Source: an uncultured virus (IMG/VR IMGVR_UViG_3300034072_002082) (taxonomy: Duplodnaviria; Heunggongvirae; Uroviricota; Caudoviricetes). Taken from it: a stretch of 64,000 nt of DNA. Below the pieces are notes generated by a model. That model ran no database searches. It saw only the letters and a program-made list of their open reading frames with translations, and had not been told where the DNA came from. The DNA is taken from the IMG/VR virus record IMGVR_UViG_3300034072_002082; one strand, 5' to 3'. Shown here piece by piece: positions 9,343-35,700 of this stretch. The position numbers and the translations under genes were made by a program. Numbering within the stretch: the stretch's first letter is position 1; the number at the start of each line of letters is the position of its first letter.

Positions 9343-9460
9343 CTTGAATTCCTTGTGTTGATTTTCATCTCGCTGATCGAGATCGACCCTCCTTCCTGAT
9401 CGAATGCGGGGGTTCGGGCCGAAGGGGCCCGTCAGCGCCTGAAGCGAAAGCGTAGCGCTG
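9343..9460 (-). promoter_or_regulatory. conserved structured leader A
   Basis: mRNA-sense GGGCCCCTTCGGCCC-GAACCCCCGC...ATCTCG/CGAGAT hairpin...GAAAAT...AAGGA; homologous to 11956-12070 and 28524-28625. Confidence 0.75.
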
Positions 9461-9585
9461 CGGATCTCACCGTGGTGGCCGGCTGGTGCCGGCGGTCTGA
9501 ATTTGCGTCAGACATCGTCGGCGGAAACGAGAAACGCCCGCTCCCTGTGTGGGAAGCGGGCGCGACAGATCCTTGGGGTCAAGGG

Positions 9586-9819
9586 TCAGTTCGAGAGAAG
9601 GTCGACCATCTCGTCGACCTCGTGGCGAAGCGTCGCTTCGTCGATGCCGTAGTGGTCGCTCAGGCGCGAGATGCGCGCGTCCACGTCTTCGCCTTCGAGC
9701 ATGTCGGATGCGACCTGGCGCAGAGCTGCGAGGTAAACGTCGTGAGGGTTCGGGACGGCTTCAACAGGCGCGCGGAAGTGCTTGGCAAGTGCGATGGCGA
9801 GCTGGTGCATGGTTTTCAT
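9586..9819 (-). CDS. hypothetical protein
   Basis: 77-aa ORF followed by a terminator at about 9532-9562. Confidence 0.6.
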   Translation of the reverse strand: MKTMHQLAIALAKHFRAPVEAVPNPHDVYLAALRQVASDMLEGEDVDARISRLSDHYGIDEATLRHEVDEMVDLLSN

Positions 9820-9971
9820 CCCTATTTGTGAATTTGGTCAGGGATGACCCAGCTTCGGTGGGGTCTGGGGCCGCTACGGCACCAGTAGAAAAGCGGCTGC
9901 CACCATAGTGGTCGGTCGCTGGATTGCAGGACAATAGGAGTTGTTCTGCACTAGGGTGAACAGGACCGGGT

Positions 9972-10145
9972 TCAGGGAAGAAGCTGCTCCAGCCCGGCGT
10001 GGGCTTCAAGTCTCTCGGTGACATCCAACAGGTCCTCCCAGATGCCATTCTCGGCCGCATCGTCATGCTCGTCAGGATCGGTCGACAGGACGATGAGCGC
10101 CTGGCGCAGCAACTGCTGGGCTTGAATGAAACGTGGTTCAGGCAT
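9972..10145 (-). CDS. small acidic hypothetical protein
   Basis: GGAG RBS before MPEPRF. Confidence 0.5.
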   Translation of the reverse strand: MPEPRFIQAQQLLRQALIVLSTDPDEHDDAAENGIWEDLLDVTERLEAHAGLEQLLP

Positions 10146-10270
10146 GGGCACTCCGGGGCATTGCGCGATCGCTGGCCGGTATGAGGCCAATAGGCAAACC
10201 GTAAACATGTTCTCCCACAAGCAAAGAAAAACCCCGCGAGCACTCGTGAGAGCTCGCGGGGTCTTTGCGT

Positions 10271-10522
10271 TCAGGTCAGAGCCCAGGTGTCGTAGGCGCG
10301 CCGGACATCCCGGCTGAGATCATCGCTGGCTTGCACGATGTCACGAGGGTCAAAGCAGCTCTGCTTGCCTTCGATGTCGAAGATTTCGGAATCGTCGGCA
10401 CCCTCAATGTCGCGCTCGACGACAATGGCGGTCACCCCGGTCAGATCCACGCCATCGCAGAGGATCTTCTCGACCACCCCGCCATCCATCAGGATGACGA
10501 GGCGCTTGGTTGGCGCGGCCAC
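10271..10522 (-). CDS. small acidic hypothetical protein
   Basis: Coupled to the upstream gene; followed by a terminator at about 10227-10262. Confidence 0.65.
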   Translation of the reverse strand: MAAPTKRLVILMDGGVVEKILCDGVDLTGVTAIVVERDIEGADDSEIFDIEGKQSCFDPRDIVQASDDLSRDVRRAYDTWALT

Positions 10523-10524
10523 GG

Positions 10525-11130
10525 TCAGGCGCCCGTGCTGGGGATGCCCCAGCCGATGCCCGGTGCATCCGTGACGTGGCCCGGCAGGATGGCATAGCCC
10601 TCATATCCGGTCTTGCGCCATTCAGCGCGATCGTCAGCGCTGAGGTCTTCTCCAGCGCTTTCCAGGTCGTCGCAGAAGCACTTGAAGGCGGCATCCATGA
10701 CGGCAGCCTGCGTCGGATCGGAGACGGTCACGTGATCGAGACGCTTCGAGCCGTCGCCACCGATGTTGCCCCAGATCACCGTGAAGCGGTGGGCGGCAGG
10801 AGCTGGACCTTCACTTGCCTGTTCGAGAACAATGGCAGCAGCCTCACAGGCCTGTCCAAGGGCAATCAGATCCGTCTTGTTGCTGGTCTCGGCATAGTCG
10901 TTGGCGGCATCGTGCAGGCGTGCCAGCGCCGTCACGAGGGAAGGGGCCTCGCGATAGGGCAGGGGAAGCACGATGGCATGGTGCATCGCATAAGCCTCCT
11001 GCTTATCGACGAAATCTGCATTGCGCTGGTTGAAGCTGGCGACTTCTGCCTTGGCAGCATCGAGCGATGTCTCGACACTTGCAGCAAGATCGCCTTCCAA
11101 CTCAGTGATGACGACGTAGGTCTCGGACAT
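10525..11130 (-). CDS. acidic hypothetical protein
   Basis: 201-aa ORF; AAGGAAA upstream. Confidence 0.65.
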   Translation of the reverse strand: MSETYVVITELEGDLAASVETSLDAAKAEVASFNQRNADFVDKQEAYAMHHAIVLPLPYREAPSLVTALARLHDAANDYAETSNKTDLIALGQACEAAAIVLEQASEGPAPAAHRFTVIWGNIGGDGSKRLDHVTVSDPTQAAVMDAAFKCFCDDLESAGEDLSADDRAEWRKTGYEGYAILPGHVTDAPGIGWGIPSTGA

Positions 11131-11266
11131 TGAGTTCTCACTTTCCTTTGGGTGATCGGATATTCGAAGGCCAAACCAATCTCGGCCGATCTGGCTCAGC
11201 GTTCTGACGCTGGCCAGCAAACCCGGACAGGCGATGCCGCCCGAGGTTCGGTGGTGCCCTGGGAGC

Positions 11267-11542
11267 TTAGGCGGCGAGGGCTAGTGCTGGAGCTTCTTCG
11301 CCTGTCAGGCCGAGGATCTTGCATTCGAACAAGTTTCGAACATGCAATTGGGCATCTAACGTCGCGCCAGTGAAAAGCTTGTCGCCGATTGTTTCAAGCA
11401 CATCGCCAAACGCGAAGGCAATCATCCTCCTGTCGCCGCCCTCAGTATGCAGGACGCTCCCTTTGGCCATGATGTAAGGCGTTCCCGCCGAATTTCCGGT
11501 GGTGATGGTTCCAGTCACGACTTGGCCAAGGGTGATCTTCAT
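11267..11542 (-). CDS. small OB-fold/SSB-like protein (paralog F)
   Basis: MKITLG..TG..TTG..AG.PY..AKGS shared with 11680..11955; ends ALALAA. Confidence 0.75.
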   Translation of the reverse strand: MKITLGQVVTGTITTGNSAGTPYIMAKGSVLHTEGGDRRMIAFAFGDVLETIGDKLFTGATLDAQLHVRNLFECKILGLTGEEAPALALAA

Positions 11543-11620
11543 TCTGAAATTCCTGAAGGATTTCGACTCCCGATAGTTTCGGGTGGTCGGAGGGGTCTGA
11601 GGTTCAGCGCCTCGATGCGC
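11543..11620 (-). promoter_or_regulatory. divergent structured leader F
   Basis: mRNA-sense GAGG...CCTC hairpin-AGACCCC, then CCCGA/TCGGG hairpin, GAAAT, AGGA. Confidence 0.5.
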
Positions 11621-11628
11621 TGGCCAGC

Positions 11629-11661
11629 AAAAACCCCGCTCGGGCAGTGCCAAAGCGGGGT
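11629..11661 (-). terminator. intrinsic terminator
   Basis: AAAAACCCCGC...GCGGGGT on +. Confidence 0.75.
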
Positions 11662-11679
11662 CGCGAGATGCCTTGTGGC

Positions 11680-11955
11680 TTAGGCAGCGATGGCTTCTGC
11701 CGGAGCTTCGACGTCCGCCGGGCCGGCGATGACGATCGAGCCGTCGTCGAAGAACCACTTGACGTCCACCGTCGCGCCGGTGGCAATCATGTCGGCAACC
11801 TTCTCGAGGCCAGCGCCGAATGCCATCACGGTGCGCGTCTTGTCGCCAGCCTTCGGGAAGTGGGCAATGCTGCCCTTCGCCTTCATGTAAGGCTGACCTG
11901 CATTCTTGCCGGTGGTGACGGTGCCAGTTTCGACGGTGCCGAGGGTGATCTTCAT
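11680..11955 (-). CDS. small OB-fold/SSB-like protein (paralog B)
   Basis: GQPYMKAKG...RTVMAFG...TGATVDV; ends AEAIAA. Confidence 0.75.
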   Translation of the reverse strand: MKITLGTVETGTVTTGKNAGQPYMKAKGSIAHFPKAGDKTRTVMAFGAGLEKVADMIATGATVDVKWFFDDGSIVIAGPADVEAPAEAIAA

Positions 11956-12070
11956 CTGTGTAATTCCTTGAAATTTTCCATCCCATGATCGGGATCGACC
12001 CCCTTTCCATGATTGATGCGGGGGTATGGGCCGAAGGGGCCCGACGCGGGCGCGACAGCGCGCTGCGCCT
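11956..12070 (-). promoter_or_regulatory. conserved structured leader B
   Basis: mRNA-sense GGGCCCCTTCGGCCC-ATACCCCCGC...GGGGGTCG-ATCCC/GGGAT hairpin...GAAAAT...AAGGA. Confidence 0.75.
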
Positions 12071-12253
12071 GCCTTGCGCAGGGTGACGGTCTCGGCAGAG
12101 CCGGCTGCCAGGTGAGGTCGCGATATGAGCGATCGCGCCATCCCCTCAGGGATCGCCAGCGATGCGCTGGCGGTGTGGCCTCAGCCCACATGAAAAACCC
12201 GCCGCGCTTTCCAGCGGGCGGGTTCAGGAGCTTTTTGCGATTGGGTTATGCCA

Positions 12254-12793
12254 TCACTGGGAAATGGCCTTCCAGCGGGCCGCTTGCCGGCCGATGGCCT
12301 CTCGCTGCCTGTCGGTCCAGCCAAGCCGATCGAGGAGCGCATCGACTTCGAGTAAAGGTTCTTCAGCCTTCAGAGCACGGGCGTTGTTCCAGCGGACGTT
12401 CTCAGGCGGAGAAAGGGCGATGACGGCCTTCTCCAACCGCTCCAGCTCGGTCTTGCTTGCTCCTGGGATCGGAAGGACGCTTGCGCTACAAAATTGCCGC
12501 GCGAACAGGCGCCGCAACTCCTTCGCCACCTTCCCGGCAACCGGGCAGGACAGCACATCATGGCGCGAGTGATACATCCGGCCGGCATTGTAGGCAGACG
12601 AGTACTTGTGAGAGTTGCCGTCCCCTCCGACATGGCGCCGCAGCCTATCCGCAAAGCCCTTGTCGGTAATCCCGATATGGCGGACCACACCCAAGTAATC
12701 CCTCAGGCCATACATTCCGGTTGAAGCAGGGACCGCGTCGAGGGAAAGCCTCTCCCCATCCAATAGGGAGGCAAGCGCAACCTGTGGATCCAT
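12254..12793 (-). CDS. GIY-YIG-like nuclease
   Basis: GMY...HIG motif pair followed by RLRRH and a downstream ELERLE...WN. Confidence 0.7.
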   Translation of the reverse strand: MDPQVALASLLDGERLSLDAVPASTGMYGLRDYLGVVRHIGITDKGFADRLRRHVGGDGNSHKYSSAYNAGRMYHSRHDVLSCPVAGKVAKELRRLFARQFCSASVLPIPGASKTELERLEKAVIALSPPENVRWNNARALKAEEPLLEVDALLDRLGWTDRQREAIGRQAARWKAISQ

Positions 12794-12956
12794 TATCAGC
12801 ACTTGGTCTTTGCCCTTCCCGATCGTCGGCCCCAGCCGCCACCATCCCGGTCCTACTACTCAATTGAGTTTTTAAAACGCTACAGGTGAGTCAAAAGCAA
12901 AAGGCCCTCTCGTTGCCGAGAGGGCCCGTCAATGTGCTAGGCGCATCGCTTCTGTA

Positions 12957-13265
12957 TCAGGCAGCCTGCAGAGCAAGCCTTGTCCTGTGGATGCGGGTGC
13001 GAAGCTTGTCGCTGGCAATGGCGACCTGCAGGAACTGGCGGGTGTTTCGCAGCGTCCCACGACGTCCTTCAGCTTCCATGAAGACCGCATCGCGAACCGC
13101 GATGTAATCGTTCCAGGTCGCGTGCTGTTCAGCGATGGCCAGCTGTGTGGCAGGGGCATCAACGCCATAGAGTTCGATCATCGACGCAGCTTGCGTGCGA
13201 GCGCGGCGCATACGCAGTGCGAGGTTAGCCAGGGCGACACGGGTCGTGCCGGGAAGGGATCGCAT
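12957..13265 (-). CDS. hypothetical protein
   Basis: 102-aa helical ORF ending QAA; followed by a terminator at about 12899-12927. Confidence 0.6.
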   Translation of the reverse strand: MRSLPGTTRVALANLALRMRRARTQAASMIELYGVDAPATQLAIAEQHATWNDYIAVRDAVFMEAEGRRGTLRNTRQFLQVAIASDKLRTRIHRTRLALQAA

Positions 13266-13354
13266 GATATATGGGTCTTTCTATTGGACGTGAGCGTTAA
13301 TCACGTCAATGTCCCGCCCTTATCGGGCAGGACATTGGAGTGCAATAGGACGTG

Positions 13355-13552
13355 TTAGGCGGCGAGACGAACCGAGTAGGCTGCGACGATCGCGTCCTCG
13401 GCTTCCTTCTGGCGCATCTTCTCGACGAACTTGGCGTTCGAGGCGGTGATCGTGACGCGGAGGCCATTCTTGAGAACGATGGTGTTGGCCTCGCGCTTGG
13501 CGATGGCGGCGCGGATGGCGAAGCGGCGGCGGATGTTGGAAGTGTAAGGCAT
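13355..13552 (-). CDS. small basic hypothetical protein (RRFAIRAAIA motif)
   Basis: GAGGAAAATCAG-ATG; ends RLAA. Confidence 0.65.
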   Translation of the reverse strand: MPYTSNIRRRFAIRAAIAKREANTIVLKNGLRVTITASNAKFVEKMRQKEAEDAIVAAYSVRLAA

Positions 13553-13657
13553 CTGATTTTCCTCGCTCTGAAGATGTTCGATCCACCGGAGGAGGGTCAT
13601 ACGGGTGTGGGCAGCGCCCACCGGCTTGGCTGGTCCAAGACAGGCGCCATCTGCGCT

Positions 13658-13693
13658 GAAAAGCCCGCCGTCGGCTGGGCCGAGGCGGGCTGA
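13658..13693 (-). terminator. intrinsic terminator, copy 1 of a 36-bp direct repeat
   Basis: GAAAAGCCCGCCGTCGGCTGGGCCGAGGCGGGCTGA; one mismatch to 14368-14403. Confidence 0.8.
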
Positions 13694-13702
13694 TCTGTTG
13701 CT

Positions 13703-14269
13703 TTATGCGGCTAGTCTTTCGCAGAGGCGGTTGCCTGCCGCATTGAAGAGGACGACATCGGGGGTTCCGAGCTCAATGGTGATGCGCGTTTTCCCATTGA
13801 GGCGGAGCCACGAGAGTTTGGGAATTGTCGAGGTGGCCGACATGTCCATATCGACGAGCCAGTCGAGTGCGTTACCCATGAGTGCGCCCCACGAGTTAAT
13901 CTCGTTGTGTGGCTCGTAGTAGGGCTCGGCATTAGCATTCTGGCTGTTTGTGACGATGCGATAACCATCGATTTCGGTGGTTAGCTGCAACCAGCCCCAA
14001 TCATTGTCGTATTTGGCCAAAGGAAGAGCTGCAAATGGTGTGCAGAGCAGGTCGCTGATAGCCATTTCCGGATTCTGTCGGACGAGTTCGATAAAGAAGG
14101 GGAAGCACGTGTTATGCTCGAACAGGAGATCGATGAATTCCGGCAGGCTTTCGATATCTCCCGCACACCGAGCAAGGATCATGGCACGAGCCTCATCGGC
14201 ATACTGCTTGTATTCAGCCATCTCAGCATCAAATGCGGCTTGGCGTTGGGGAGTGAGTGCCTGTTCCAT
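13703..14269 (-). CDS. hypothetical protein (lower-GC cassette)
   Basis: GAGGAAAACCAG-ATG; visibly more AT-rich codons; ends RLAA. Confidence 0.7.
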   Translation of the reverse strand: MEQALTPQRQAAFDAEMAEYKQYADEARAMILARCAGDIESLPEFIDLLFEHNTCFPFFIELVRQNPEMAISDLLCTPFAALPLAKYDNDWGWLQLTTEIDGYRIVTNSQNANAEPYYEPHNEINSWGALMGNALDWLVDMDMSATSTIPKLSWLRLNGKTRITIELGTPDVVLFNAAGNRLCERLAA

Positions 14270-14367
14270 CTGGTTTTCCTCGCGTGCTTGATTGCAAATG
14301 CATTCTCGAAAACCCCTCCAGCCGTTGCTGACAGCAAGGGCGACACCAACCGTGGCGGCTCGACATG

Positions 14368-14403
14368 GAAAAGCCCGCCATCGGCTGGGCCGAGGCGGGC
14401 TGA
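14368..14403 (-). terminator. intrinsic terminator, copy 2 of a 36-bp direct repeat
   Basis: GAAAAGCCCGCCATCGGCTGGGCCGAGGCGGGCTGA. Confidence 0.8.
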
Positions 14404-14422
14404 GAAAACTCGTGCGCTGATC

Positions 14423-14893
14423 TCAGTGCCTTGTAGCTGAGACCATCGCCTGGCGTGCGATAATGTAGCGACAGGCATCGTGTGCCGAGGCAAGTTTGAC
14501 CTTGGTGCCCGATGACCCAACCGTCACCCCAGGGCGCCGGTTGTATGCGTCGTGGCTGGCAGTCCAGCTGCCATCGGCATTGGCGACGATGAAGCCCACC
14601 GTCAGGTCGGGTGCCTGCCCGGGCTCTGCCGAGGCCATCAGGTAGTAGCCCTGCCGCGGACCTTGCCCGGCATAGCCGGAGAGTTGCCAGCCGGCATAGT
14701 CCCCGGAGCCTGCCACCACGGTCATGCCGTGGATGGTGTAGGCATCGGCAGTGCGGAAAGCACCATTGGCAACGCATGGCGCGTTCAGGATGTCGGCCGC
14801 TTCGCTGGCCCAGCGCAGGTGAGCTTCATCGAGACCGGCGGCGTAGGCAGCCAGCGAAGGTTCGCCCAAGTCGAAGGTGCGGGCAGGGTACAT
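14423..14893 (-). CDS. hypothetical protein
   Basis: AGGA RBS before MYPART. Confidence 0.6.
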   Translation of the reverse strand: MYPARTFDLGEPSLAAYAAGLDEAHLRWASEAADILNAPCVANGAFRTADAYTIHGMTVVAGSGDYAGWQLSGYAGQGPRQGYYLMASAEPGQAPDLTVGFIVANADGSWTASHDAYNRRPGVTVGSSGTKVKLASAHDACRYIIARQAMVSATRH

Positions 14894-14942
14894 GGCTGCG
14901 ATCCTGAGGCAGGGGTGATAAACGAAGTGGAGTTGGCTGGGG

Positions 14943-15104
14943 TCAGCCGCGACGCTGCTTGAGCGTCGCCACGAGCAGCTGCCCACGCGTGCGGCAGCTG
15001 AAGTAGGTCTCGTCGCTGGCGTGGCGTGTGACCGGGCTGCAGATCCAGTCAAGCACACGGCTGATGAAAGCGTTGATACGGTTGCGGCGGGTGAGGGTGA
15101 GCAT
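14943..15104 (-). CDS. small hypothetical protein
   Basis: GGAG RBS before MLTLTRRN; 53 aa. Confidence 0.5.
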   Translation of the reverse strand: MLTLTRRNRINAFISRVLDWICSPVTRHASDETYFSCRTRGQLLVATLKQRRG

Positions 15105-15157
15105 TGGTCGAACTCCGTGTGTCTGGGCGAGGGGGAAGATCTGCGGGACGGCGCGCC

Positions 15158-15394
15158 TTAAGGGTGGTCGCGCTGGGTCCACGCGTCGGGCCCTGCCTCG
15201 AGGGCGGCTTCAGCGGCGTCGTAGGTCGGCCAGTATTCGACCGACTCCCGCGAGTAGGGCATCTCATCCTGGCAAGTGCCGAGGTAGAAGCCACGAGCCG
15301 AGTGCATCACTTCGAGCGGGAGCGAGACACCGCCAAATTCCTTGGCGATCTGTCCACGAGGACCAGGAACGAGAGCGGAAGCGGTCTTGGTCAT
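15158..15394 (-). CDS. conserved plasmid/ICE-type hypothetical protein
   Basis: LPLEV..SA.GFYLGT...PYSRESVEYW...WTQR.HP pattern recalled from conjugative-element small proteins. Confidence 0.65.
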   Translation of the reverse strand: MTKTASALVPGPRGQIAKEFGGVSLPLEVMHSARGFYLGTCQDEMPYSRESVEYWPTYDAAEAALEAGPDAWTQRDHP

Positions 15395-15555
15395 GGGCGA
15401 AGCCTTTCGTCTGATGTTCTGGGTATGCATGGGTGATCCACGACACCCGGCCCGCTCACTTGAGCGAGGCGACATCGCAGAGGGCATCCGAGGCACTAGG
15501 CAAAGCGGAGCACTCGCCGCACCTTTGTTGCGGGGCGAGTGCTCCAGTCGCTCGG

Positions 15556-16602
15556 CTAGACTTTGGTGTTGAAGGTCTCGTAGATGGCCTTGGCAGTGCC
15601 CGGGCCGATACCTTCAACAGCCCGCAAAGCGGCAACGTCGGCATTCCCAACGGCGACCAGGCTGCCGAAGTGGCGCAACAATGCCCGCGCGCGGGTCGCT
15701 GAGACGCCGTGGATGCTTTCGAGCGTGTATGATGCGCCGGCGAGTGGATCGATCTTGGCGGCCTTCTTTGGGGCAGAGGCTCGCAGGCCAACATCATAGC
15801 CGAGGCCATAGCAGACGTGCCGCACGGCCTTTGCGATCATGTAGACGGTGCTGCGGTGGTCAAGAGTCTCGAGGATCGGAATGCCCTGGATGAGCGACAG
15901 ATAGGTAAGCGTGCCATAGATGGCGTTGAGCTGCATCGATCGCTGTGCGCAGGCGCCGCCCTCGATTATGATCAACGACGGGATTTCGAGCTCGACCATC
16001 GCATTGGTCTGGAAGAACATCCGCTTGGCATCTTCGGTCATGCTCTGGTGGAAATCCGTGGTCGTCTTGCGCTCGATGACGAACCGGCCGGGGACCATAT
16101 AGTCCCCAACATCGAGGGTGGTCACCTCGACTTCGAGATTGGGTATCTGGGCGAGGGCCTCTGCGATCGCGGCTGGCTCACGATGATCGACGAGGATCTT
16201 GGTGGGTTCAGGGATGGGATGGGACATGCGCGTGGCATCGAGCGAACCGGTGTCGGCTGCAGTGTAAGGGTCGGAGCGGTAGGTTAATTCTGCGAGGGTC
16301 GAGCCTTTGCGGCCCCCGTGAGACCCTGACCAACCGCCCCTGTTGAAGCCGCCGCTCGCCCGCTGGCTCGGTGCCCCACGACTTTCCGCGATGGATTTGA
16401 GGCCCTCCCAGTCTGGCAAAGGGCCTTCTAAGAGAATGGCAGCAAGACTCATGGCCTCGGCCGCGGTGATCTCTGGGCCAGCCCAAAGCACCTGGTCACC
16501 CGACCTCTTCTCACCGAACACTTTGGGATGGCCGGGCGCTTCGAGATAAATGCGCTCACGCTTGCGGTCCGGAGATTTCCAATGTGTGATTTTGATCTGC
16601 AT
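15556..16602 (-). CDS. ERCC4/XPF-type nuclease with tandem HhH domain
   Basis: VDHRE, GDY...VIERKT..DF and LIIIEG nuclease motifs; HhH motifs IHGVS..RARALL.HFGS and VEGIG..TA..I. Confidence 0.9.
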   Translation of the reverse strand: MQIKITHWKSPDRKRERIYLEAPGHPKVFGEKRSGDQVLWAGPEITAAEAMSLAAILLEGPLPDWEGLKSIAESRGAPSQRASGGFNRGGWSGSHGGRKGSTLAELTYRSDPYTAADTGSLDATRMSHPIPEPTKILVDHREPAAIAEALAQIPNLEVEVTTLDVGDYMVPGRFVIERKTTTDFHQSMTEDAKRMFFQTNAMVELEIPSLIIIEGGACAQRSMQLNAIYGTLTYLSLIQGIPILETLDHRSTVYMIAKAVRHVCYGLGYDVGLRASAPKKAAKIDPLAGASYTLESIHGVSATRARALLRHFGSLVAVGNADVAALRAVEGIGPGTAKAIYETFNTKV

Positions 16603-16748
16603 TTGCCCGCTTTCATTCCCTAGCTGGATAGTATCGCGCCAGCAGGGTTTAGACCATCACTTCAAACCGCTGCCTATTCCAACGGCACTTCACGCCCGAA
16701 GAGACCGGAGAGGCAGGCTGTCTTTCCGGATTCCTCCTCCGGCCCCGC

Positions 16749-17339: not shown

Positions 17340-17407
17340 TGGTGACCTCGCGAGAAACTGGAAGAAGCCGCGCTCCTGATCGGAAGCGCGGCTGGGATTG
17401 TGCGACT

Positions 17408-25570: not shown

Positions 25571-25588
25571 GAGGTCTTGAGGAGTTCG

Positions 25589-26284: not shown

Positions 26285-26409
26285 CTGATTTCATCCTACA
26301 AACTGAGTTCGCAAAGGATGATGAGAACCCCTGAAATTGTCGGCAAAAGAAGAGCCCCGCACAATCGTTTGTGCGGGGCTTGCTTGGGCTTGGACCTGAG
26401 GCTGATCGA

Positions 26410-28053: not shown

Positions 28054-28226
28054 AATCATTCCCCCGGGCCCGCGTTTGCATCCGACGGTCGGGTGCATCT
28101 GCTGCGGGCAGCTGTAATATGACCCCGGGAAATGGCGCGCGCTGCAACTGACCCCCCTAAAAAGCGAAAAAGCACACAAAACCCCGCCGGCGCGGTGCGC
28201 GGGCGGGGTCTGTGTTGATCGGTTGA

Positions 28227-28523
28227 TCAGGCGGCTGCGGCTTCAGCCGCTTCGGTCTCTGCGGCCTTGGGCGCGATGACCAGGAGGACGTTGTCCTTGA
28301 ACACGGCCTTGACCGTGATCTTGCGGCCCTTCTTGAGGCGGCTGGCGATGGCGTCGCGGGCGTCGCCGAATGCCTGGACTGTCAGCTTGCGCGGGTTCTT
28401 CGCGAAGTGGCAGTCAGCGTTTTTCAGGGTGGCGTACTTCCGTCCGGCGTCGGGGCCCGAAGCGATGGTGCCGGTCTTGACGCTCGAAGGGGTGAGGGTG
28501 ACGGTGAAAGGGAACTTGCTCAT
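28227..28523 (-). CDS. small OB-fold/SSB-like protein (paralog C)
   Basis: GRKY...LTVQAFG.ARD.I...LKKGRKITV; ends AEAAAA; terminator at about 28178-28210. Confidence 0.75.
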   Translation of the reverse strand: MSKFPFTVTLTPSSVKTGTIASGPDAGRKYATLKNADCHFAKNPRKLTVQAFGDARDAIASRLKKGRKITVKAVFKDNVLLVIAPKAAETEAAEAAAA

Positions 28524-28625
28524 ATCTGTGTCCTTGTGCTTGATTTTCGTTTGATCGCTCAGATCACATCCCATTCCTGATCGAAAAGCGGGGGTATGGG
28601 CCGAAGGGGCCTGATCGCCGGCCAG
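28524..28625 (-). promoter_or_regulatory. conserved structured leader C
   Basis: mRNA-sense GGCCCCTTCGGCCC-ATACCCCCGC...TCGATCAGGAA...TGATC/GATCA hairpin...GAAAATCAA...AAGGA. Confidence 0.75.
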
Positions 28626-28723
28626 CTCTGCCTGTCCGGCGCGAGGTTGCGTGCAACCTGCTGCGCCAAGCGCATGAAACCCCTGCCAGATGAAACTGGC
28701 AGGGGTCCAAAAGCACTAGAGCT

Positions 28724-30013
28724 TCAAGCGACGTGCTTGAGGATGCACCAAGGCTCGATGCCTTGGGGAATGTTGTGGGCGTCATAGTCGACGCGGCTGG
28801 CGAAGTCGGAGCCAGCGTGGATGCTCCAGCGCCCCGGGGCAACGTCGACATGGACAATGTTGCCCGCGTAGCTCTTCTCGTGATGCCCTTTGCGGTCGTC
28901 GTCGGCCACGTCAGCATCGACCATGGAAAGGTAACGGTCGAGCTCTTGCTCGGGGTTGGTGCATCCGCTCTTGGCCATCAGCGAGATGGCCGTGGCGCGG
29001 TCGAAGGCAAAGACGCGCCAGACGTCACAGGAGAACGTGCCGATAAAGTTCCAGCCTGGAATGATCGGGTGGTCGTTCTCGTCAGCCGGGAAATCGTCCT
29101 GAGCGTAAGCCTCGGTGACCATGAGAGCCGACTTGTCGGCGCTCTGGAACACTGCAACGCAAGTGTTTGAGGTTTGCGTGTAAGCGATCTGGTGCTCGTT
29201 GGCGTGCGCGCTGATACGGGCCGTCTGGCCAACCTCAGTGTTGAGCGAAAGGGTCTTGTATTCGCGATCGTCGTCGAAATCGGTCGCCTGAACAAAGCCC
29301 TCAACACGCAGGGCATCTGTGAGTATCAGCTTGCCGGTGGGCACGTCGAATTCGGCTGTGACCAGTTCGATCTCAGCGACATCCTGCGCCGGGACCAGTT
29401 CGTGGCTGTCGTCATAGACCATGAGCTTGGCGGTCCAGTTCTCGAACTGAAGCACGCACAGGTCTCCGGTCTTGGCGTCCGTCATGCGGATGCCCCAGCC
29501 AAATGTGTCATCGCTGCTGGTGCCTTCGTCGAGAGCAGCGCAGATGCTCTCCCAGGTTGCAATCTGCTGTTCCTTCGACGGAAGGCGGTGCTTGCCGGGA
29601 ACGTAGTCCGGAGACTGGCGACGGGAATAGCGGTCCTTGTCCATGCGGAGGAACGCCTTGGTCCAGATCGAAGCCAGACCGTCGAGCAGCCATTTGCGTG
29701 TGTAATCACCTTCCTCGCCGGTCACGAGCGCATTCCATGCGCTGACGAGGGGAAGTTCGCGGCCCGCAAGGCCTGTGGCGGCGCCAAGGCGCTTCTGGCT
29801 GAGCAGGTCATCGAGCTGCTGAGCGACGGCTGCAAGGAAGATCACCTTGTGGGCTTCAATGCGCTTACGGTCGCGCTGGTCGAGGTCGTTGGCAGCCTTC
29901 ATGGCGGTTTGGTTTTGAGCGGTCGCCTGACCGTTGAAATCGTTTGAACGCCACCAGGCGGCGTCAGCAACATCAGCGAAGGTCTCAAGCGGGTAAAGGT
30001 TGGCAAAAGCCAT
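28724..30013 (-). CDS. hypothetical protein
   Basis: 429-aa ORF; GGAGGAAATC-ATG; terminator at about 28677-28706. Confidence 0.75.
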   Translation of the reverse strand: MAFANLYPLETFADVADAAWWRSNDFNGQATAQNQTAMKAANDLDQRDRKRIEAHKVIFLAAVAQQLDDLLSQKRLGAATGLAGRELPLVSAWNALVTGEEGDYTRKWLLDGLASIWTKAFLRMDKDRYSRRQSPDYVPGKHRLPSKEQQIATWESICAALDEGTSSDDTFGWGIRMTDAKTGDLCVLQFENWTAKLMVYDDSHELVPAQDVAEIELVTAEFDVPTGKLILTDALRVEGFVQATDFDDDREYKTLSLNTEVGQTARISAHANEHQIAYTQTSNTCVAVFQSADKSALMVTEAYAQDDFPADENDHPIIPGWNFIGTFSCDVWRVFAFDRATAISLMAKSGCTNPEQELDRYLSMVDADVADDDRKGHHEKSYAGNIVHVDVAPGRWSIHAGSDFASRVDYDAHNIPQGIEPWCILKHVA

Positions 30014-30163
30014 GATTTCCTCCAGCTAATTTGGATGCACTGGAAGGACGAAATCTTCGGTCAACAAAGTCACTCTTGAATGGATATCATGTGACGCAGA
30101 ACACTACTTTGTAAGATATAGATTGTGATAAATTGTTTACCTCTCGATTCGAGGAGGCTGACA

Positions 30164-31009
30164 ATGGTGGATTTTCAATACCTCGATGCTGATCCAAATT
30201 CTCCTGATGAAACGGTTTACCAGGAAGAGATAGGACCACAAATTACTGATCGAGCAAGGGAAGAAACAACGGCAGGCAAGAAAGCTGATTTTGTTGTTCC
30301 GCCTGATGTACATTTTCTGAAGCTATATGGATGCTGCGGTGGTGACGGCGGATCACCCGGAGAGAGTTCCAGAGCCTCGCAAGTTCCTGGTGCTGGTGGC
30401 AAAGGTGGGACTGGTTACTTACCATCGTATTGGGCAGACAAGGACGGCAGGCGCGATATACCGGTCAATCCAGGGCAGGTGTTCACAGTTGAGATTGGTG
30501 CAGGGGGCGCATCTGGCCAAGTTGGCGGTCAAACCATTTTTGCAGAAAAACCTGAAGCTGGTGTCCCAGGAAAGAAGTACGTTTTCAGTTCTGAAACATC
30601 AAAGCAGGTTGCAGGTGGCGGGGCAGCAGCCCGTGGCCGTGACGCACCAGGTGTTGGTAAAAGCGTCAATGGGCCGAACGGCAACTTTCCCGGAGGATCC
30701 GTCTGGCAAAGGCTAGGCCATCAGGATAATCACTGGGGCGGCGGCGGCGGAGGCGGCGGTGCTGGACGGGGGCCCGGCGGTAACGGCGGGGCTGGAGGTT
30801 GCGACGGCGGAACTGAGATCGCCATGGGCGGCACAGGCAATCCTGACTTTCAGCGTGCCCACAGTGGTCAGCCTGGCAGCGATGCTCGTGGCAATTGCGC
30901 AGGCGGTGGCGGTGGCGGTGGCGCAGGGGACACCGACAAGGATGGCGGCGTCGGTGCGGGCGGTCCCGGCGGGCGTGGTGGGGACGGTTATCTCGTCATC
31001 CTGTGGTAA
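30164..31009 (+). CDS. glycine-rich domain protein
   Basis: GAGGAGG RBS; FVVP..V, IPVNPGQ.FTV.IGAGG and GG.GGDGYLVILW pattern typical of glycine-rich domains. Confidence 0.75.
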   Translation: MVDFQYLDADPNSPDETVYQEEIGPQITDRAREETTAGKKADFVVPPDVHFLKLYGCCGGDGGSPGESSRASQVPGAGGKGGTGYLPSYWADKDGRRDIPVNPGQVFTVEIGAGGASGQVGGQTIFAEKPEAGVPGKKYVFSSETSKQVAGGGAAARGRDAPGVGKSVNGPNGNFPGGSVWQRLGHQDNHWGGGGGGGGAGRGPGGNGGAGGCDGGTEIAMGGTGNPDFQRAHSGQPGSDARGNCAGGGGGGGAGDTDKDGGVGAGGPGGRGGDGYLVILW

Positions 31010-31045
31010 CTCAGATGTTTCAGTCGAGCAAGGCCGGCTGAAAGC

Positions 31046-31081
31046 AAAAACCCTCGCCTGCGTGCTTGCAGGCGAGGGTTC
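31046..31081. terminator. intrinsic terminator between convergent genes
   Basis: AACCCTCGCCTGC-GTGCTT-GCAGGCGAGGGTT. Confidence 0.8.
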
Positions 31082-31097
31082 TGATTAATCTTCGAGA

Positions 31098-31367
31098 TCA
31101 AGCTGCCTTGGCGGTCTTCGCAGGGCCAAGAATGCGCAGCAGGTTCTTGCCGTCGAACTGGGCGGTGACGGTGACCGTCTTGCCCTTGCGCAGCAACGAG
31201 CGGACGCTGTCGCGGGCCTTGCCGAAGGCCATGACGGTCACGTCTGCCTCGTTGCCGTTCTTGTAGAACGCGCGGGACTCGCGGATCGTCGAGTAGCGCT
31301 GGCCGTTGACGGCGGTCTTGGTTTCAACCGAACCGAGACGCACCTTGAGCTGGATGATGGCTGCCAT
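31098..31367 (-). CDS. small OB-fold/SSB-like protein (paralog D)
   Basis: GQRY...VTVMAFGKARD.V..LLRKGKTVTV..FDGKN..RILGP; ends KAA. Confidence 0.78.
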   Translation of the reverse strand: MAAIIQLKVRLGSVETKTAVNGQRYSTIRESRAFYKNGNEADVTVMAFGKARDSVRSLLRKGKTVTVTAQFDGKNLLRILGPAKTAKAA

Positions 31368-31470
31368 GTTGAAATCGTCCTTTGTCTTGAATTTTCATAT
31401 CCCGGAGTGGGATCGCATTTTGAATTTTCGCGAAACCGGGGTCTGGGGCAGGCGGCCCCTGATCAGCGCG
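31368..31470 (-). promoter_or_regulatory. structured leader D
   Basis: mRNA-sense GGGGC...GCCCC-AGACCCCG...ATCCC/GGGAT hairpin...GAAAATTCAA...AAGGA. Confidence 0.65.
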
Positions 31471-31519
31471 GCTGGCTGCGGTGGTCTGCCCGTCCCTTGC
31501 GCTGCAGGTGACCGGGCTG

Positions 31520-32098
31520 TCAGGCGGCCCAGGCCGAATCCACCGCCGGCGAGAACTCGGGACGAGGCGCCCGGCGGATGCGCATGGTCAGCATGACCGA
31601 CTGCTTGGCTGCATCGATGAGGTCGATGGTCTTCTGCGAGAAGACAACCAGCGGTCCATAGATCGTGGTGAGGCCGCCTTCGTGCGCCTCCACGTTGATC
31701 GTGAGCATACGTCCAGTACGCGAGCGACCCTCGTCAACGTAGGTGACGACGCCGGTGATCAGGCTTGGGATGTCGAGGCCGTGCTTGAAGCTGCGGCGCA
31801 GCGGCTTCTCAGGAGCGGGCTTGGCGCCGCCGAATGGGCCTGCATGGGCCTTGGCAGCAGGCTCCGGCCAGACAAAGGCGGATGCCTCCTGAAAGGCTGC
31901 GAGCGGATTGCGGAGCAGAGCCTCGCTGATGTCGGCAAGCGTCAGGCCATACTTGGCCAGAAGACGCGTGAAGCCACCGAGGGCAGCGATCTGGTCCGAT
32001 CCTTCGGCCAGAGCGAACATGTTCCAGGCTGCAGCGACGCGGCGGTCGTTGAAGGCATCGCGCATGGCGGCTGGGACGTTCTGAGGACGGTCGGTCAT
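31520..32098 (-). CDS. hypothetical protein with possible C-terminal OB-like domain
   Basis: ITGVV...GR...GPLVVF beta-rich C-terminus; ends WAA. Confidence 0.6.
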   Translation of the reverse strand: MTDRPQNVPAAMRDAFNDRRVAAAWNMFALAEGSDQIAALGGFTRLLAKYGLTLADISEALLRNPLAAFQEASAFVWPEPAAKAHAGPFGGAKPAPEKPLRRSFKHGLDIPSLITGVVTYVDEGRSRTGRMLTINVEAHEGGLTTIYGPLVVFSQKTIDLIDAAKQSVMLTMRIRRAPRPEFSPAVDSAWAA

Positions 32099-32206
32099 GC
32101 GCGGGTTTCCTTGAACCATGGGGATTTGCTCGAACCCTTGGGCAAATGGCGCAGCCAAAAACCCCGGCTCCTCTGCAGAGGAGCCGGGGTCTTGATGTGG
32201 GCCCGA

Positions 32207-35086
32207 TCAGGCCGCGACTGCGAGTTCCTCGCTGACGCTCTCGAAGCAACCGAGCATCTGCTCGATGTCTTCGATGGTGATGCCATCGCACAGTTCCACG
32301 GTGCGGTGGGGCATGATGATCTCCGACAGCCCGCTCTTGCGGCGGTGCTTGGCCATCATGAAATTCTCGATCGGCGAGTTCATCACGAAGCGGTAGACCT
32401 CAATCACCTTGGTCTGATTGCGGCGGGTCGCGCGGCCGATGCCCTGGCGCTCAACCATGGGGTTCCACCATGGCTCAGCGAAAAAGATGGCATCAGCTTC
32501 GTTGAAGTCGAGCGAGCGGCCACCGGACTTGGTGGTCATCAGGATGATCTGGGCATCGCCTGCCTTGAACTTGTTCTCGGCAACCCGCTTGTCGGCCTTG
32601 TTCATGCGTCCGTCGTAGTGGACGGCGGTCATGCCATGCTGACGCAGGACCGATCCCAGCAGGTCGAGGTGGCTCGTCCAGCTCGAGAAGACGATGATGC
32701 GCTTGCCCTGGTCGACGAGGTCAGCAGCCTTGTCGACAATGGCCTTGGTCTTGGGCGAGATCTTGTACGGCGAGACCGGACCCGAGACGCCACCTGGCAT
32801 CAGCAAGGGGTTGCACGACAGCTGACGCTCGCGCGTCATGCTGAGCATGATCGACATGCCAAGCTGTGCCGCGCCGCGGCCGCTCTTGCGGACGTCATCG
32901 AGCTTCTTCTCAAAGCGCTTGCGCTTGAGAGCAGACAGGACCGAGTAGGTCTTGGTCTGAGCCTTGGTCATTTCGACGTTGATCTCGTGCACCACAGGCG
33001 TCGGGATCTTGTCGTCGTAACGGGCCAGAATGAACGGCGAGGTGAGGGCATTCAGCCGGTTTGCTGCAACAACGTCCGCATCATCCATGATCGGCGAGGT
33101 GAAGACCTTGTGGAAGGCCGGCAACGTGCCGAACACGCCCGGGTTCGCGATCGACATGAGCGTGTAGAGGTCGTCGTAGGAGTTCTCGATTGGCGTTGCC
33201 GTCATCGGAATCTTCTGCACGGCCTCGATGGCTGCGATCGACTTGGCTAGATGGCTCTTGGCGTTCTTGGCGTCCTGAGCCTCGTCCAGAGCCACTATGG
33301 TCCAGCGACGGTCACTCAGCGGGCAGCTGGAGCGATGGATCAGGTCATGGGTGGTGATCACGATGTCACCGACCTCTGGGGTCGGCCGTGACTTGCCCCA
33401 CCACATGTGAACCGGCAGCCCGTCGAAGTTCTTGGCGATGTCGGCATGAATCTTCTCAAGGGCTGCGCTGGGTACGACCAGCAGAGCACCCTCATCGAGA
33501 AGGCCAGCTTCACGCAGCGAGGCGATGTGAAGCATGATCTCGGTGGTTTTGCCGAACCCGGTACCATCGGCAAGGATGCCGCCGTAGCCGTGGTTGAACA
33601 GGGTGCGCATCCAGCGGGCTGCGGCCAGCTGGCGGTCGTCCTGCTCACCGACGAAGCAGGCAGGATAGAGGATCTGCTCCTGCTCGCCGACACGCATGGC
33701 GTTGAGCAGGCGCAGCAGGCCGTCAGGGGCAGTGAGGCCGATGTTCATCGACAGGTTGGCAAGATCGGCAAGCGATCCCAGGTCCACAGGGGCCGACCCA
33801 TAGCCGCGACGCGACATGAGGATGCGGCGCAGGGCAACACCCAGCGAAATGAAGTCGTCAGCCTTTAGGAGAAGGATTTCTCCGGTCTCGCTGCGCATCG
33901 GCACTTCGCCATTGCGAACGTAGCGCTGGAGGAAGGCTGCAGCCTCGATGTCATCGGCCATTTCGGGGATATCGATGATCATCTCTGCCAGCGGCTCGAT
34001 GATGCTGCTGGTGGTATCGCCCTCGAAGATGTCGAGCTGATAGTCATGCTCGTGCGCGCCGATGGCGATGTTGAGCTCCAGCTGCGAAATGCGGCGGAGG
34101 GAAATGGCCCAGTTCGCAGCCTCGCTGATGGTCCAGCCTTCGCTGGCCAGGCGTTCGGATTGCTGCTCCTGGAAGAGGGCTGCATCGACGTCTGCGTCAG
34201 CGCCTGCGAAGGTCATGACGCCCTTGGCGTCCGTCTTGTTGAGGCCCTGCTCAGCAGCTTCCTTGAGGATGCGCTTTTCGGCCGAGACGTTGCGCTTGAT
34301 GACGGTGACGGTGTTGGTTTCAGGGTCAAACGCCCGGGCCTCGCCGCCCTCGCCGAGGTCGCCCACGAGCGCACCTTCGTAGTCTGCAGTAATGCGCGCA
34401 ACGGGCTTGTCCCCGTCGCGTTCGAAGGTGATGCGCTTCTTTGGGCGCCCCATCTGCCGCTTGACGGCGATCGGGGTGGGCTTTGCAGCGATGGACTGGT
34501 CGGTGACATGGTCGGTCATCGCTTCAGCAAGCGACGCGCTCTGCTCAGGCGAGAGCGGGCCGGAGCGCACAAGGCCCACGGCCACATGGGCGGCCATGTC
34601 CACGAGGATGCGCGAGAGCTTGCCTTCAGCAATACGAACAGGGATGCCGGCATTGTAGATTTCGCTGGGGGAGAGATCGGGCACGAGCACGAAGATCTGC
34701 GTGCCATCGTCCTGCATCACCCACTGCGGAGCGGCAGTCAGGGTCTCGCTTTCGCTGATCGAAGAGTCGTCTTCGAAAGTGAGGCTGTCACTGCGGATCA
34801 AGCCGGCAAGAATGCTCGCGGCGTCCTCGCCTTCGAGCCTGAAGATCGCGTCTTCTGCGCTTTCAGCCTTGGGCAGCGCAAAAATGCCAGCCACGGTCAG
34901 GCGTTCGCTTTCGCTGATACGCAGCGGCATGCTCCAGACGGGCTTGCCGGTGGCAATGTAGCTGAGCTTCAGGCCCAATTGGCCCCTGTCATCCACTTCA
35001 ACCAGATCGAAGCGCACGCGCGGGCCAAACTGCTGGACTGGTGCCTTGCTGAACAACCAGTCAAATGCCCCATGGACTGCACTCAT
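32207..35086 (-). CDS. SNF2/SWI2 family helicase-like ATPase
   Basis: GGILADGTGFGKT, LDEAQ, MTATPIEN, IVFS.W, YDG and EPWWNP..E.Q..GRA.R..Q motifs. Confidence 0.95.
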   Translation of the reverse strand: MSAVHGAFDWLFSKAPVQQFGPRVRFDLVEVDDRGQLGLKLSYIATGKPVWSMPLRISESERLTVAGIFALPKAESAEDAIFRLEGEDAASILAGLIRSDSLTFEDDSSISESETLTAAPQWVMQDDGTQIFVLVPDLSPSEIYNAGIPVRIAEGKLSRILVDMAAHVAVGLVRSGPLSPEQSASLAEAMTDHVTDQSIAAKPTPIAVKRQMGRPKKRITFERDGDKPVARITADYEGALVGDLGEGGEARAFDPETNTVTVIKRNVSAEKRILKEAAEQGLNKTDAKGVMTFAGADADVDAALFQEQQSERLASEGWTISEAANWAISLRRISQLELNIAIGAHEHDYQLDIFEGDTTSSIIEPLAEMIIDIPEMADDIEAAAFLQRYVRNGEVPMRSETGEILLLKADDFISLGVALRRILMSRRGYGSAPVDLGSLADLANLSMNIGLTAPDGLLRLLNAMRVGEQEQILYPACFVGEQDDRQLAAARWMRTLFNHGYGGILADGTGFGKTTEIMLHIASLREAGLLDEGALLVVPSAALEKIHADIAKNFDGLPVHMWWGKSRPTPEVGDIVITTHDLIHRSSCPLSDRRWTIVALDEAQDAKNAKSHLAKSIAAIEAVQKIPMTATPIENSYDDLYTLMSIANPGVFGTLPAFHKVFTSPIMDDADVVAANRLNALTSPFILARYDDKIPTPVVHEINVEMTKAQTKTYSVLSALKRKRFEKKLDDVRKSGRGAAQLGMSIMLSMTRERQLSCNPLLMPGGVSGPVSPYKISPKTKAIVDKAADLVDQGKRIIVFSSWTSHLDLLGSVLRQHGMTAVHYDGRMNKADKRVAENKFKAGDAQIILMTTKSGGRSLDFNEADAIFFAEPWWNPMVERQGIGRATRRNQTKVIEVYRFVMNSPIENFMMAKHRRKSGLSEIIMPHRTVELCDGITIEDIEQMLGCFESVSEELAVAA

Positions 35087-35297
35087 CTGGATCCCTTTCG
35101 TGGAAATGCTAGAATTCGGTCAGCTTTTGAGAGGACCAATGTGTCTCGAGCCTCGTCGGCGAGAGTGCGCACCTGCATGCGAGGCCTGTCGCAAAGGGCG
35201 CGGATCTCCACCGCTGTCTGACCTTGCAAAACAAAAGCCCCGCGCAGCGTGATGCTGCGCGGGGCTCTGTTGTTGCTCGCTCTGGCGAGCCTGGCCG

Positions 35298-35582
35298 TTA
35301 GGCCGCTGCGGCTTCAGCCGGGGCTTCTGCCGGGGCCGGGTCCTTGCGCAGGCCGAGGACGCGGTACGAACCGCCCTGCGGCATGCAGTTCAAGGTCACC
35401 TTGCGGCCCGGCTTGAAGAACTTCTTCACAGCCTCGACGTTTTCCTTGAAAACCATCACCGTGCGCTTTCCGACGACGGTGCCGTCCTTCTTCAGAAGGT
35501 TGCCCTTGCCGACCAGGTAGTCACCTGCCTTCGACGAGTTGCGAGCATGAACTTCGGTGAGCTTGAAAGTGATGTTCGACAT
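35298..35582 (-). CDS. small OB-fold/SSB-like protein (paralog E)
   Basis: AGDY..GKG...KRTVMVF...KPGRKVTL; ends AEAAAA; terminator at about 35233-35265. Confidence 0.72.
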   Translation of the reverse strand: MSNITFKLTEVHARNSSKAGDYLVGKGNLLKKDGTVVGKRTVMVFKENVEAVKKFFKPGRKVTLNCMPQGGSYRVLGLRKDPAPAEAPAEAAAA

Positions 35583-35700
35583 CTTGCTATCTCCTTGTTT
35601 GCAAAGTCAATTTCTTCCCGACTATCGGGAACATAATTTTCACCTGCAGAAGAGGAGGGGAGCACGCTTGCGGGCGTGGGGTGGAACCACCCCGGACCTC
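35583..35700 (-). promoter_or_regulatory. divergent structured leader E
   Basis: mRNA-sense GGGGTGG-TT-CCACCCC-ACGCCCGC...TTCCCGA/TCGGGAA hairpin-GAAATT...AAGGAG. Confidence 0.55.

Follow-up and report, generated by a model that had tools for sequence, protein, structure and literature searches.

The 64,000-nucleotide stretch of an uncultured virus record analyzed here (IMG/VR IMGVR_UViG_3300034072_002082; hereafter the window) carries six small paralogous genes, A to F, each preceded by a folded, non-coding leader. We find that this leader is a real, conserved and covarying multi-hairpin cis element tied to a new family of SSB/PriB-like proteins, predicted to adopt the oligonucleotide-binding (OB) fold, on sphingomonad plasmids. 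An initial annotation of the window, made from its sequence alone, had placed a hairpin leader in front of all six genes, and this is borne out: every copy is a cassette comprising, in this order, a leader of about 100 nt, the open reading frame (ORF) and a GC hairpin with a T run. The annotation had also pointed to an exact motif shared by leaders A, B and C, and the 24-nt GGCCCCTTCGGCCCNNACCCCCGC indeed occurs three times, once before each of these genes, against 0.00 expected in 100 shuffles.

Organization of the OB cassettes

The window has a G+C content of 60.8%, and its minus strand holds nearly all of the genes. The six OB genes, recovered by tblastn, are all on that strand and encode proteins of ~90 aa with 27-47% identity to A upon alignment. 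On the sense strand a complete leader consists of a first hairpin (H0), hairpin 1 (H1), the box ACCCC(C)GC, hairpin 2 (H2) and a GAAA motif, followed by the Shine-Dalgarno (SD) sequence and the start codon. Scores in the following list are those of R1, a covariance model of H1, the box and H2 that comprises 19 leaders.

9406-9429, 12018-12041 and 28588-28611, minus: copies of GGCCCCTTCGGCCCNNACCCCCGC, by exact match
9061-9342, minus: OB gene A, 93 aa (tblastn, alignment)
9000-9035, minus: terminator of gene A, hairpin plus T run
9361-9460, minus: leader A (79 bits, E 2.9e-18), with SD and ATG downstream; H0 9433-9460; H1 9416-9430 (GGGCC-CCTTC-GGCCC); box ACCCCCGC 9406-9413; H2 9367-9383 (ATCTCG/CGAGAT); GAAAAT 9361-9366
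11680-11955, minus: OB gene B, 91 aa, with an AlphaFold2 model (pLDDT 86.5); terminator 11629-11662
11973-12069, minus: leader B (65.6 bits); H0 12049-12069; H1 12028-12042; box 12018-12025; H2 11980-11995 (ATCCCG/TGGGAT, one G.T pair); GAAAAT 11973-11978
28227-28523, minus: OB gene C, 98 aa; terminator 28176-28210
28543-28641, minus: leader C (63.1 bits); H0 28616-28641; H1 28599-28611; box 28588-28595; H2 28552-28566 (TGATC/GATCA); GAAAAT 28543-28548
11267-11542, minus: OB gene D, 91 aa; terminator-like hairpin 11219-11247
11560-11622, minus: leader D, a compact variant not detected by R1; hairpin CAGCGC/GCGCTG 11605-11622, 6 nt past the B terminator; box ACCCCTCCG 11588-11596; H2 11569-11583 (CCCGA/TCGGG); GAAAT 11560-11564; no CCTTC hairpin
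31098-31367, minus: OB gene E, 89 aa; terminator 31046-31080
31391-31504, minus: leader E (43 bits, E 5.7e-9); H0 31464-31504; H1 31445-31459 (GGGGC-CGCCT-GCCCC); box ACCCCGG 31436-31442; H2 31399-31413 (ATCCC/GGGAT); GAAAAT 31391-31396
35298-35582, minus: OB gene F, 94 aa; terminator 35228-35266
35606-35711, minus: leader F (24.2 bits, E 4.5e-4); H0 35698-35711; H1 35678-35693 (GGGGTGG-TTC-CACCCC); box ACGCCCGC 35670-35677; H2 35615-35631 (TTCCCGA/TCGGGAA); GAAAT from 35614 downward

Anatomy of the leader

The most widespread part of the leader is H2 together with GAAA, a module present in 43 of 44 leaders. An automatic rule (a stem of 4-7 bp, a loop of 3-7 nt and 0-3 nt before [G/C]AAA) is satisfied by 38 of the 39 distinct leaders, the exception being leader D, which misses it solely through a 4-nt gap; two of the rule-made calls were amended by reading the sequence, and among five extra genes four were clear and one ambiguous. 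All the H2 arms quoted in the initial annotation are present. The stems are diverse, including TCCCG, TCCCC, TCTCG, TCCTC, CCTCC, CTCCC, TGATC, ATTGATC and TCTCGAT among others, with seven different ones in a single Erythrobacter plasmid (see below) and six in the window, and the loops of 3-7 nt are not conserved. The polarity of H2 is nevertheless fixed, with a pyrimidine-rich 5' arm and a GGA-containing 3' arm that are never flipped. Its position relative to the translation start is likewise constrained, with distances of 20-33 nt between GAAA and the ATG and of 6-12 nt between GAAA and the SD. In 43 of the 44 leaders an A-rich tract of 20-33 nt that contains the SD comes after H2, which is the structural arrangement of a gp32-type operator.

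The loop of H1 is a constant CCTTC, and the 5-bp stem reads GGGCC/GGCCC in the window and either GGACC/GGTCC or GGGGC/GCCCC in the metagenome lineage, where both types occur within one 206-kb contig. The box ACCCC(C)GC follows two bases past it. The initial annotation had a GC hairpin in this place in all six leaders; in D there is no H1 with a CCTTC loop, and the leader has just the CAGCGC/GCGCTG hairpin, the box and H2. H0 is an additional hairpin of variable sequence ending 0-7 nt before H1, in which no sequence is conserved and pairing alone is kept. It forms a perfect stem of at least 6 bp in 19 of 24 leaders (mean 6.2 against 4.2 in shuffled sequences; Fisher p 8e-9, a value that is too small because the leaders are not independent). 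None of the three hairpins carries the T run of an intrinsic terminator, and separate terminators lie up- and downstream of them.

Several further features were considered and rejected. The pairing of ACCCCC with a downstream GGGGGT that had been noted in leader B is real there, but an ACCCC:GGGGT middle helix is not a general feature (mean best stem 4.05 against 3.69 in shuffles, Fisher p 0.65, 38 leaders). An upstream ORF starting from the ATG inside GGGATGAAA is contradicted by 13 leaders with ACG at that place. GAAA(A)T cannot be the -10 box of an mRNA that retains the SD because the latter is only 6-12 nt downstream, and a -10 box within the H2 loop (GATNNT) fits, by eye, some copies only.

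Covariation and purifying selection

The covariation that the initial annotation had suspected from the changing stems is present in two kinds of alignment. On the model alignment, which is structure-fitted and made of related sequences, 89.8% of the H1 and H2 cells pair, against 79.8% after shuffling (0 of 500 shuffles as high). Pair 6-18 of H1 is GC in 10 leaders, AU in nine and CG in one, and pair 7-17 is CG in 11 and GC in seven; because the sequences are related, these changes amount to few events, not twenty. The second alignment, an ungapped MAFFT alignment of 30 leaders from four lineages, is not structure-fitted and has several rows out of register. In it H2 pairs in 74.4% of cells against 65.2% shuffled (0/500) and reaches a covariation score of 0.338 against 0.193 (0/500); all six of its pairs have changed on both sides, a result matched by 19 of 500 shuffles, and slid controls are at most 58% paired.

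Selection on the CCTTC loop, the box and GAAA emerges from 15 metagenome copies with near-identical proteins, whose codon positions 1 and 2 differ by 0.036 and third positions by 0.196. Their leaders show a difference of 0.000 in the CCTTC loop, in both arms of H2 and in GAAA. For the box the value is 0.117 and for the H1 arms, where the changes are compensated, 0.206; the linkers and middle region reach 0.4-0.66. The conserved blocks have remained unchanged despite diverged third positions, and purifying selection, not merely recent copying, therefore maintains them. Leaders A, B and C share H1 and the box, their proteins being only 33-47% identical, and near-identical metagenome OB proteins carry two H1 types. 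A cognate match between a leader and the protein encoded behind it is not supported.

Relatives and linkage of the leader to the OB family

A protein-guided scan of metagenome contigs yielded 16 loci, five of them on one contig of 206,822 bp. A profile hidden Markov model run over the ORFs of these loci brought the full-length OB genes to 25, including the six of the window, with 24 distinct upstream regions, all of which have the leader. When R1 was run over 209 kb, all 21 matches at E<=4.5e-4 lay directly 5' of OB genes. Protein searches of a plasmid collection recovered relatives on two complete named plasmids, Sphingosinicella sp. BN140058 p1 and the Erythrobacter aureus YH-07 plasmid, neither of which contributed to the model; in their 104 kb, 8/8 R1 matches at E<0.01 are 5' of OB genes. 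Judged by source names, a 75-kb plasmid of Novosphingobium sp. BL-8H and metagenome-assembled genomes of Novosphingobium carry further relatives. Hence the linkage that the initial annotation proposed to examine by a covariance-model scan holds in three further lineages. It is also exclusive, in that the element was not found in the other intergenic regions of the window.

An exact scan for GGCCCCTTCGGCCCNNACCCCCGC gave no match in viral contigs or in metagenome contigs, and three matches in species genomes are chance occurrences in unrelated GC-rich sequence without an OB gene. First searches of plasmid and phage collections returned nothing for the window DNA or protein B, a word-indexed protein search recovered the query alone, and no leader variants of use came out of four DNA contig sets. 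The OB family profile had no match in 401 sampled Alphaproteobacteria genomes, which speaks for that sample and is not proof of absence. A match on a Rhodovastum plasmid was spurious, being a fragment of an IS3-type transposase. No Rfam family matched the window at gathering score, and a scan of 9300-12150 at relaxed E-value gave three chance-level matches, none on a leader. A limited literature search did not find a published description of the element.

Some weaker sequences resemble parts of the leader. The next-best R1 match (E 0.03) is at window positions 6003-6070 on the minus strand (GGGGCCTTCGCCC), before the non-OB gene 5658-5998; another leader-like sequence at 9812-9885 (minus; ATCCCT...AGGGAT-GAAAAC) abuts the ATG of the non-OB gene 9586-9819. 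On Sphingosinicella p1 (locus L020) an H2-like module (TCCAT/ATGGA plus GAAATC plus AGGAG) at 33906-33950 precedes a gene for a 51-aa non-OB protein, and a weaker one at 32777-32803 precedes an S8 peptidase gene.

A divergent family of predicted OB-fold proteins

None of the six proteins scores above a Pfam or NCBIfam cut-off, and for A and B, the two of the six scanned against PHROGs, no match was obtained. The best Pfam scores are to SSB (PF00436), at 14.2 and 12.2 bits against a cut-off of 26, so that membership in the SSB family is not supported. An exhaustive profile search gathered 105 representative proteins at E<=1e-3 (22 at E<=1e-10), mostly 85-135 aa long with a TVMAFG core and Ala-rich ends; a Pfam scan of 26 of these relatives gave no match.

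The fold assignment made in the initial annotation is supported by comparisons of predicted structure. The AlphaFold model of B, built with 55 homologues, has six strands and one helix (predicted local distance difference test, pLDDT, 86.5). Every top Foldseek match of this model is to SSB or PriB, though none is strong (best E 7.6e-3, template-modeling score ~0.5). A VIA wide search with the same model gave Z 8.0 to an SSB domain and PriB, with a root-mean-square deviation of 2.8-3.0 over 78 residues, a Z of 8 being a level that the tool itself calls common; ESM Atlas neighbors are likewise OB domains. The modeling thus points to a probable OB fold of SSB/PriB-like type, these proteins being the closest structural matches of the predicted fold. 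An acidic C-terminal tip is a motif of bacterial SSB; the OB proteins lack it and carry Ala-rich tails instead, which end in Ala-Ala in all six window proteins and in AEG or VEA in the metagenome copies.

More broadly, many OB proteins end in Ala-Ala (AAAA, KAA, LAA, IAA), resembling the ssrA tag, and others in AEG. The Erythrobacter aureus plasmid (NZ_CP031358.1) has clpX at 188388-189647 (locus L021 33388-34647) within its OB-gene array; a connection between the tails and ClpX is only a thought. Four relatives, namely P0006, P0009 (229 aa), P0025 (201 aa) and the protein encoded at L021 41024-41686 (220 aa), have a tandem two-domain OB architecture or a C-terminal extension of ~120 aa.

Plasmid context

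The OB regions of the relatives are long one-strand arrays of small genes of unknown function, and 18 of 57 window ORFs have homologues in them. They also encode nucleases, an SNF2 helicase, a CCA-adding enzyme, RNase H, phosphoesterases and orphan methyltransferases, as well as Fic, RES, macro and NADAR domain proteins and an RNA ligase, and are reminiscent of the regions for establishment and anti-defence on large plasmids of Alphaproteobacteria. The 10-11 OB genes of each complete plasmid occupy a single strand (at 154.7-228.9 kb and 134-203 kb), and a large ORF for a MobA/MobL relaxase (PF03389) lies downstream of the array on the same strand (at 122.7 and 117.1 kb), so that the OB genes are co-oriented with it and 12-80 kb upstream. 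The PF03432 relaxase family was not found in these two plasmids, one of which is typed as mobilizable and the other as non-mobilizable in PLSDB. In the F-plasmid model the leading region has the transferred strand as template. Because the layout of the OB arrays matches this model, it is plausible that they lie in a putative leading region with the transferred strand as template.

Possible functions of the leader

Among the possible roles of the element we rank control from the 5' untranslated region (UTR) of the OB mRNA first, followed by a single-stranded DNA (ssDNA) signal of the leading region, a duplex operator and a recombination site, and leave the remaining probability unassigned. The computed data cannot separate the RNA from the ssDNA mode. 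Our tentative preference, held at somewhat short of an even chance, is for a folded 5' UTR through which the translation or the stability of the OB mRNA is regulated, with autogenous control a possibility. It would then act as RNA, with as its universal module an H2 of 4-7 bp, having an anti-SD-like, pyrimidine-rich 5' arm and an SD-like, GGA-containing 3' arm; GAAA(A)U comes 0-4 nt after this hairpin and leads into the unpaired A-rich tract of 20-33 nt with the true SD and AUG. This module might set translation initiation and/or mRNA stability for a protein required in quantity. H0 and H1, the latter with its CCUUC loop and the adjacent ACCCC box, may add structure at the 5' end that protects the transcript, directs its processing or is recognized by proteins in some members of the family. 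The OB protein could load on the unpaired tract beside the hairpin and repress its own translation in the manner of T4 gp32. The leader of T4 gene 32 is an autoregulatory pseudoknot at a single gene. Both it and the OB leaders are folded 5' elements that pass through an unstructured, A-rich tract into the ribosome-binding site before a gene for a single-strand-binding protein, but the OB leaders are simple hairpins at 6-11 paralogs per plasmid and their autogenous binding is putative. Confinement to one gene family, as is the case for gene-specific leaders, favors RNA. The 3' arm of H2 plus GAAAUC resembles the SD and spacer of neighboring genes (GAGGAAAWC-ATG), and weak non-OB matches of an H2 model are ribosome sites of this form. 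The two internal non-Watson-Crick pairs of H2 are both G.T on the sense strand, with no A.C. The unchanging polarity of H2, the closeness of GAAA to the SD and the OB fold predicted for the protein are further hints in this direction.

Several observations weigh against a 5' UTR. No promoter was detected upstream of the leader, in agreement with the initial annotation: the minus strand, which is the gene strand, has no sigma-70 consensus promoter in 9000-12400 and 28100-35900, and the two found there, on the plus strand only, are at chance level. Leader D begins 6 nt past the B terminator, and an RNA with the full leader therefore needs read-through or an unrecognized promoter. The internal mismatches of leader hairpins (G.T 4, A.C 8, other 27), set against those of terminators in the same cassettes (G.T 15, A.C 7, other 6), reveal no RNA-type wobble excess in the leaders, and folding z-scores are equal on both strands (-1.72 and -1.77). 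Since leader type does not co-vary with protein type, any autoregulation would be at the level of the family and not cognate.

These mismatch counts and the lack of a detected sigma-70 promoter, with each cassette bracketed by terminators, fit the possibility, which we rank second and hold clearly less likely than not, that the hairpins act in ssDNA entering a recipient, as a start of early transcription and/or priming at the G of GAAA or as a structural block that slows synthesis of the complementary strand. On this view the OB cassettes would serve as stations for early expression or priming along the leading region, with a function like that of the F ssDNA promoter and a different build. 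The one-strand OB arrays upstream of a co-oriented relaxase, the homologues there of 18 of the 57 window ORFs, the orphan methyltransferases, nucleases and RNA-repair genes of those regions and a coupling-protein domain of a type IV secretion system 3.4 kb upstream of one OB gene are consistent with this, and a hairpin, an invariant GAAA and then a UTR of normal length (20-33 nt) fit a start site. N4 virion RNA polymerase promoters offer one comparison: they have a stem of 5-7 bp and a small loop, are extruded as single-strand hairpins with the aid of SSB, and start a few bases downstream. The OB leaders are like them in the short stem, small loop and candidate start just downstream, and unlike them in that their H2 loops of 3-7 nt are not conserved. 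That the leader is an N4-like rather than Frpo-like signal, a hairpin plus GAAA start read on the entering strand of sphingomonad conjugative plasmids, is in our estimate a rather unlikely version of the ssDNA alternative. Frpo of F is one long imperfect stem-loop that rebuilds TTGACA -35 and TATAAT -10 boxes plus an UP element, and it also precedes other leading-region genes (PMC11541004). It lies upstream of ssb, is stimulated by SSB and primes DNA synthesis, and a second ssDNA promoter stalls conversion. The OB leaders resemble Frpo and ssi sites in being folded, non-coding and repeated, in preceding an SSB-type gene within a unidirectional, leading-like region and in showing no evident working double-strand promoter; they differ in having three short, independent hairpins and in serving one gene family only. 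While the initial annotation was right that a real, OB-linked element is present, membership in the Frpo class, one of the mechanisms it had offered beside a priming site and a protein-bound RNA leader, is not supported, because there is no long stem and no -35 or -10 box is rebuilt in any of the separate stems of merely 4-10 bp. Action in entering ssDNA also leaves the fixed polarity of H2 and its SD-like arm unexplained; dozens of neighboring genes would require similar early expression and yet lack the element, and Prim-Pol was not found in the two named plasmids.

We regard as improbable a conventional double-stranded promoter whose palindromic operator binds a plasmid repressor, subject to zygotic induction as with Reg576 of p576 or CUP of IncN plasmids. 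CUP elements are repeats before establishment genes of IncN plasmids. Reg576 too exemplifies a repeated, conserved element upstream of several establishment-region genes (PMC6294495), a likeness to the OB leaders; those systems are however fixed-sequence duplex operators, whereas the OB stems covary and differ within a plasmid. In favor of this reading, some promoter must lie within the 85 nt before D, and the 15 metagenome copies show no variation in the H2 arms. However, within single plasmids these arms are wholly different (TCCTC, CCTCC, CTCCC, TCTCGAT, ATTGATC and others) with pairing kept, neither the Erythrobacter plasmid nor the window has the same half-site at all of its sites, and the seven H2 stems of one plasmid argue against a single duplex operator. 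Because, in addition, it is the loop and not the arms of H1 that is constant, such an operator is unlikely; H0 conserves pairing only, GAAA is too near the SD for a -10 box, and consensus hexamers are absent. Last in our ranking, and about as improbable, is that the hairpins are ends of a movable or recombining gene cassette (attC- or REP-like), conserved for rearrangement and not for expression. The 6-11 dispersed cassettes per plasmid have sharp homology boundaries at H1 and the terminator, and in one contig (depth 7.8) the 3' flank of A is fused to the B leader. Against this, the window paralogs are only 27-47% identical and are therefore old duplications, no recombinase travels with the cassettes, and H2 is at a fixed distance from the SD and ATG.

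The contig in question, a related metagenome contig from run X4, joins window positions 9000-9111 to 11922-12045; as a single contig, it suggests recombination between cassettes.

Significance

The leader and its protein family are in none of Rfam, Pfam, NCBIfam and PHROGs, yet are strongly selected in 6-11 copies per plasmid. Action as RNA would make the element a new class of autoregulatory leader for single-strand-binding proteins, and action as DNA a new kind of single-strand signal in conjugation. Were the N4-like version true, it would be a second, unrelated ssDNA-active start signal, hard-wired to a PriB/SSB-like gene, and the 6-11 cassettes would be early-expression or priming stations in the leading region of plasmids whose hosts lack PriB. 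The OB cassette bears on the question of how leading-region genes are activated outside F-like enterobacterial plasmids, and is a defined, mutable element in three cultured, named strains.

Other genes and sequence patterns of the OB regions

The window further encodes a photolyase, an ERCC4 nuclease, an SNF2 helicase, two NinI-like metallophosphatases, a CCA-adding enzyme, an RNase H and a thermonuclease (108-1913, 15556-16602, 32207-35086, 35841-36716, 37276-38442, 47078-47911, 54332-54976, 56306-57445). These DNA- and RNA-handling genes are interspersed with dozens of unknown one-strand genes, an arrangement that resembles an anti-defence or establishment region. An IS605-type OrfB/TnpB gene with OrfB_IS605 and Cas12f1-like TNB domains is at 45795-47003 (minus). 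No tRNA or transfer-messenger RNA genes were found in the window.

Non-OB genes often share an extended ribosome-site pattern, CGAAYCC-N7-9-(A)GTGAGGAAAWC-ATG, the upstream GAATC of which is a GANTC (CcrM-type) site. It occurs in the window at 30014-40 and 26287-26313, and in the loci L007 (5902-5928), L008 (12120-12146), L009 (2517-2543), L011 (3977-4003) and L019 (1712-1738).

Two sigma-like genes, annotated as sigma-32 and as a sigma factor-like helix-turn-helix protein, lie within the OB array of Sphingosinicella p1 (L020 40528-41460 and 45582-46646). They could direct unusual promoters in p1, and neither the window nor the metagenome loci yielded a homologue of them. In locus L016 (2932-10675), one OB gene has downstream of it a run of about twelve same-strand ORFs of similar size, 160-190 aa, which may be a second paralog array.

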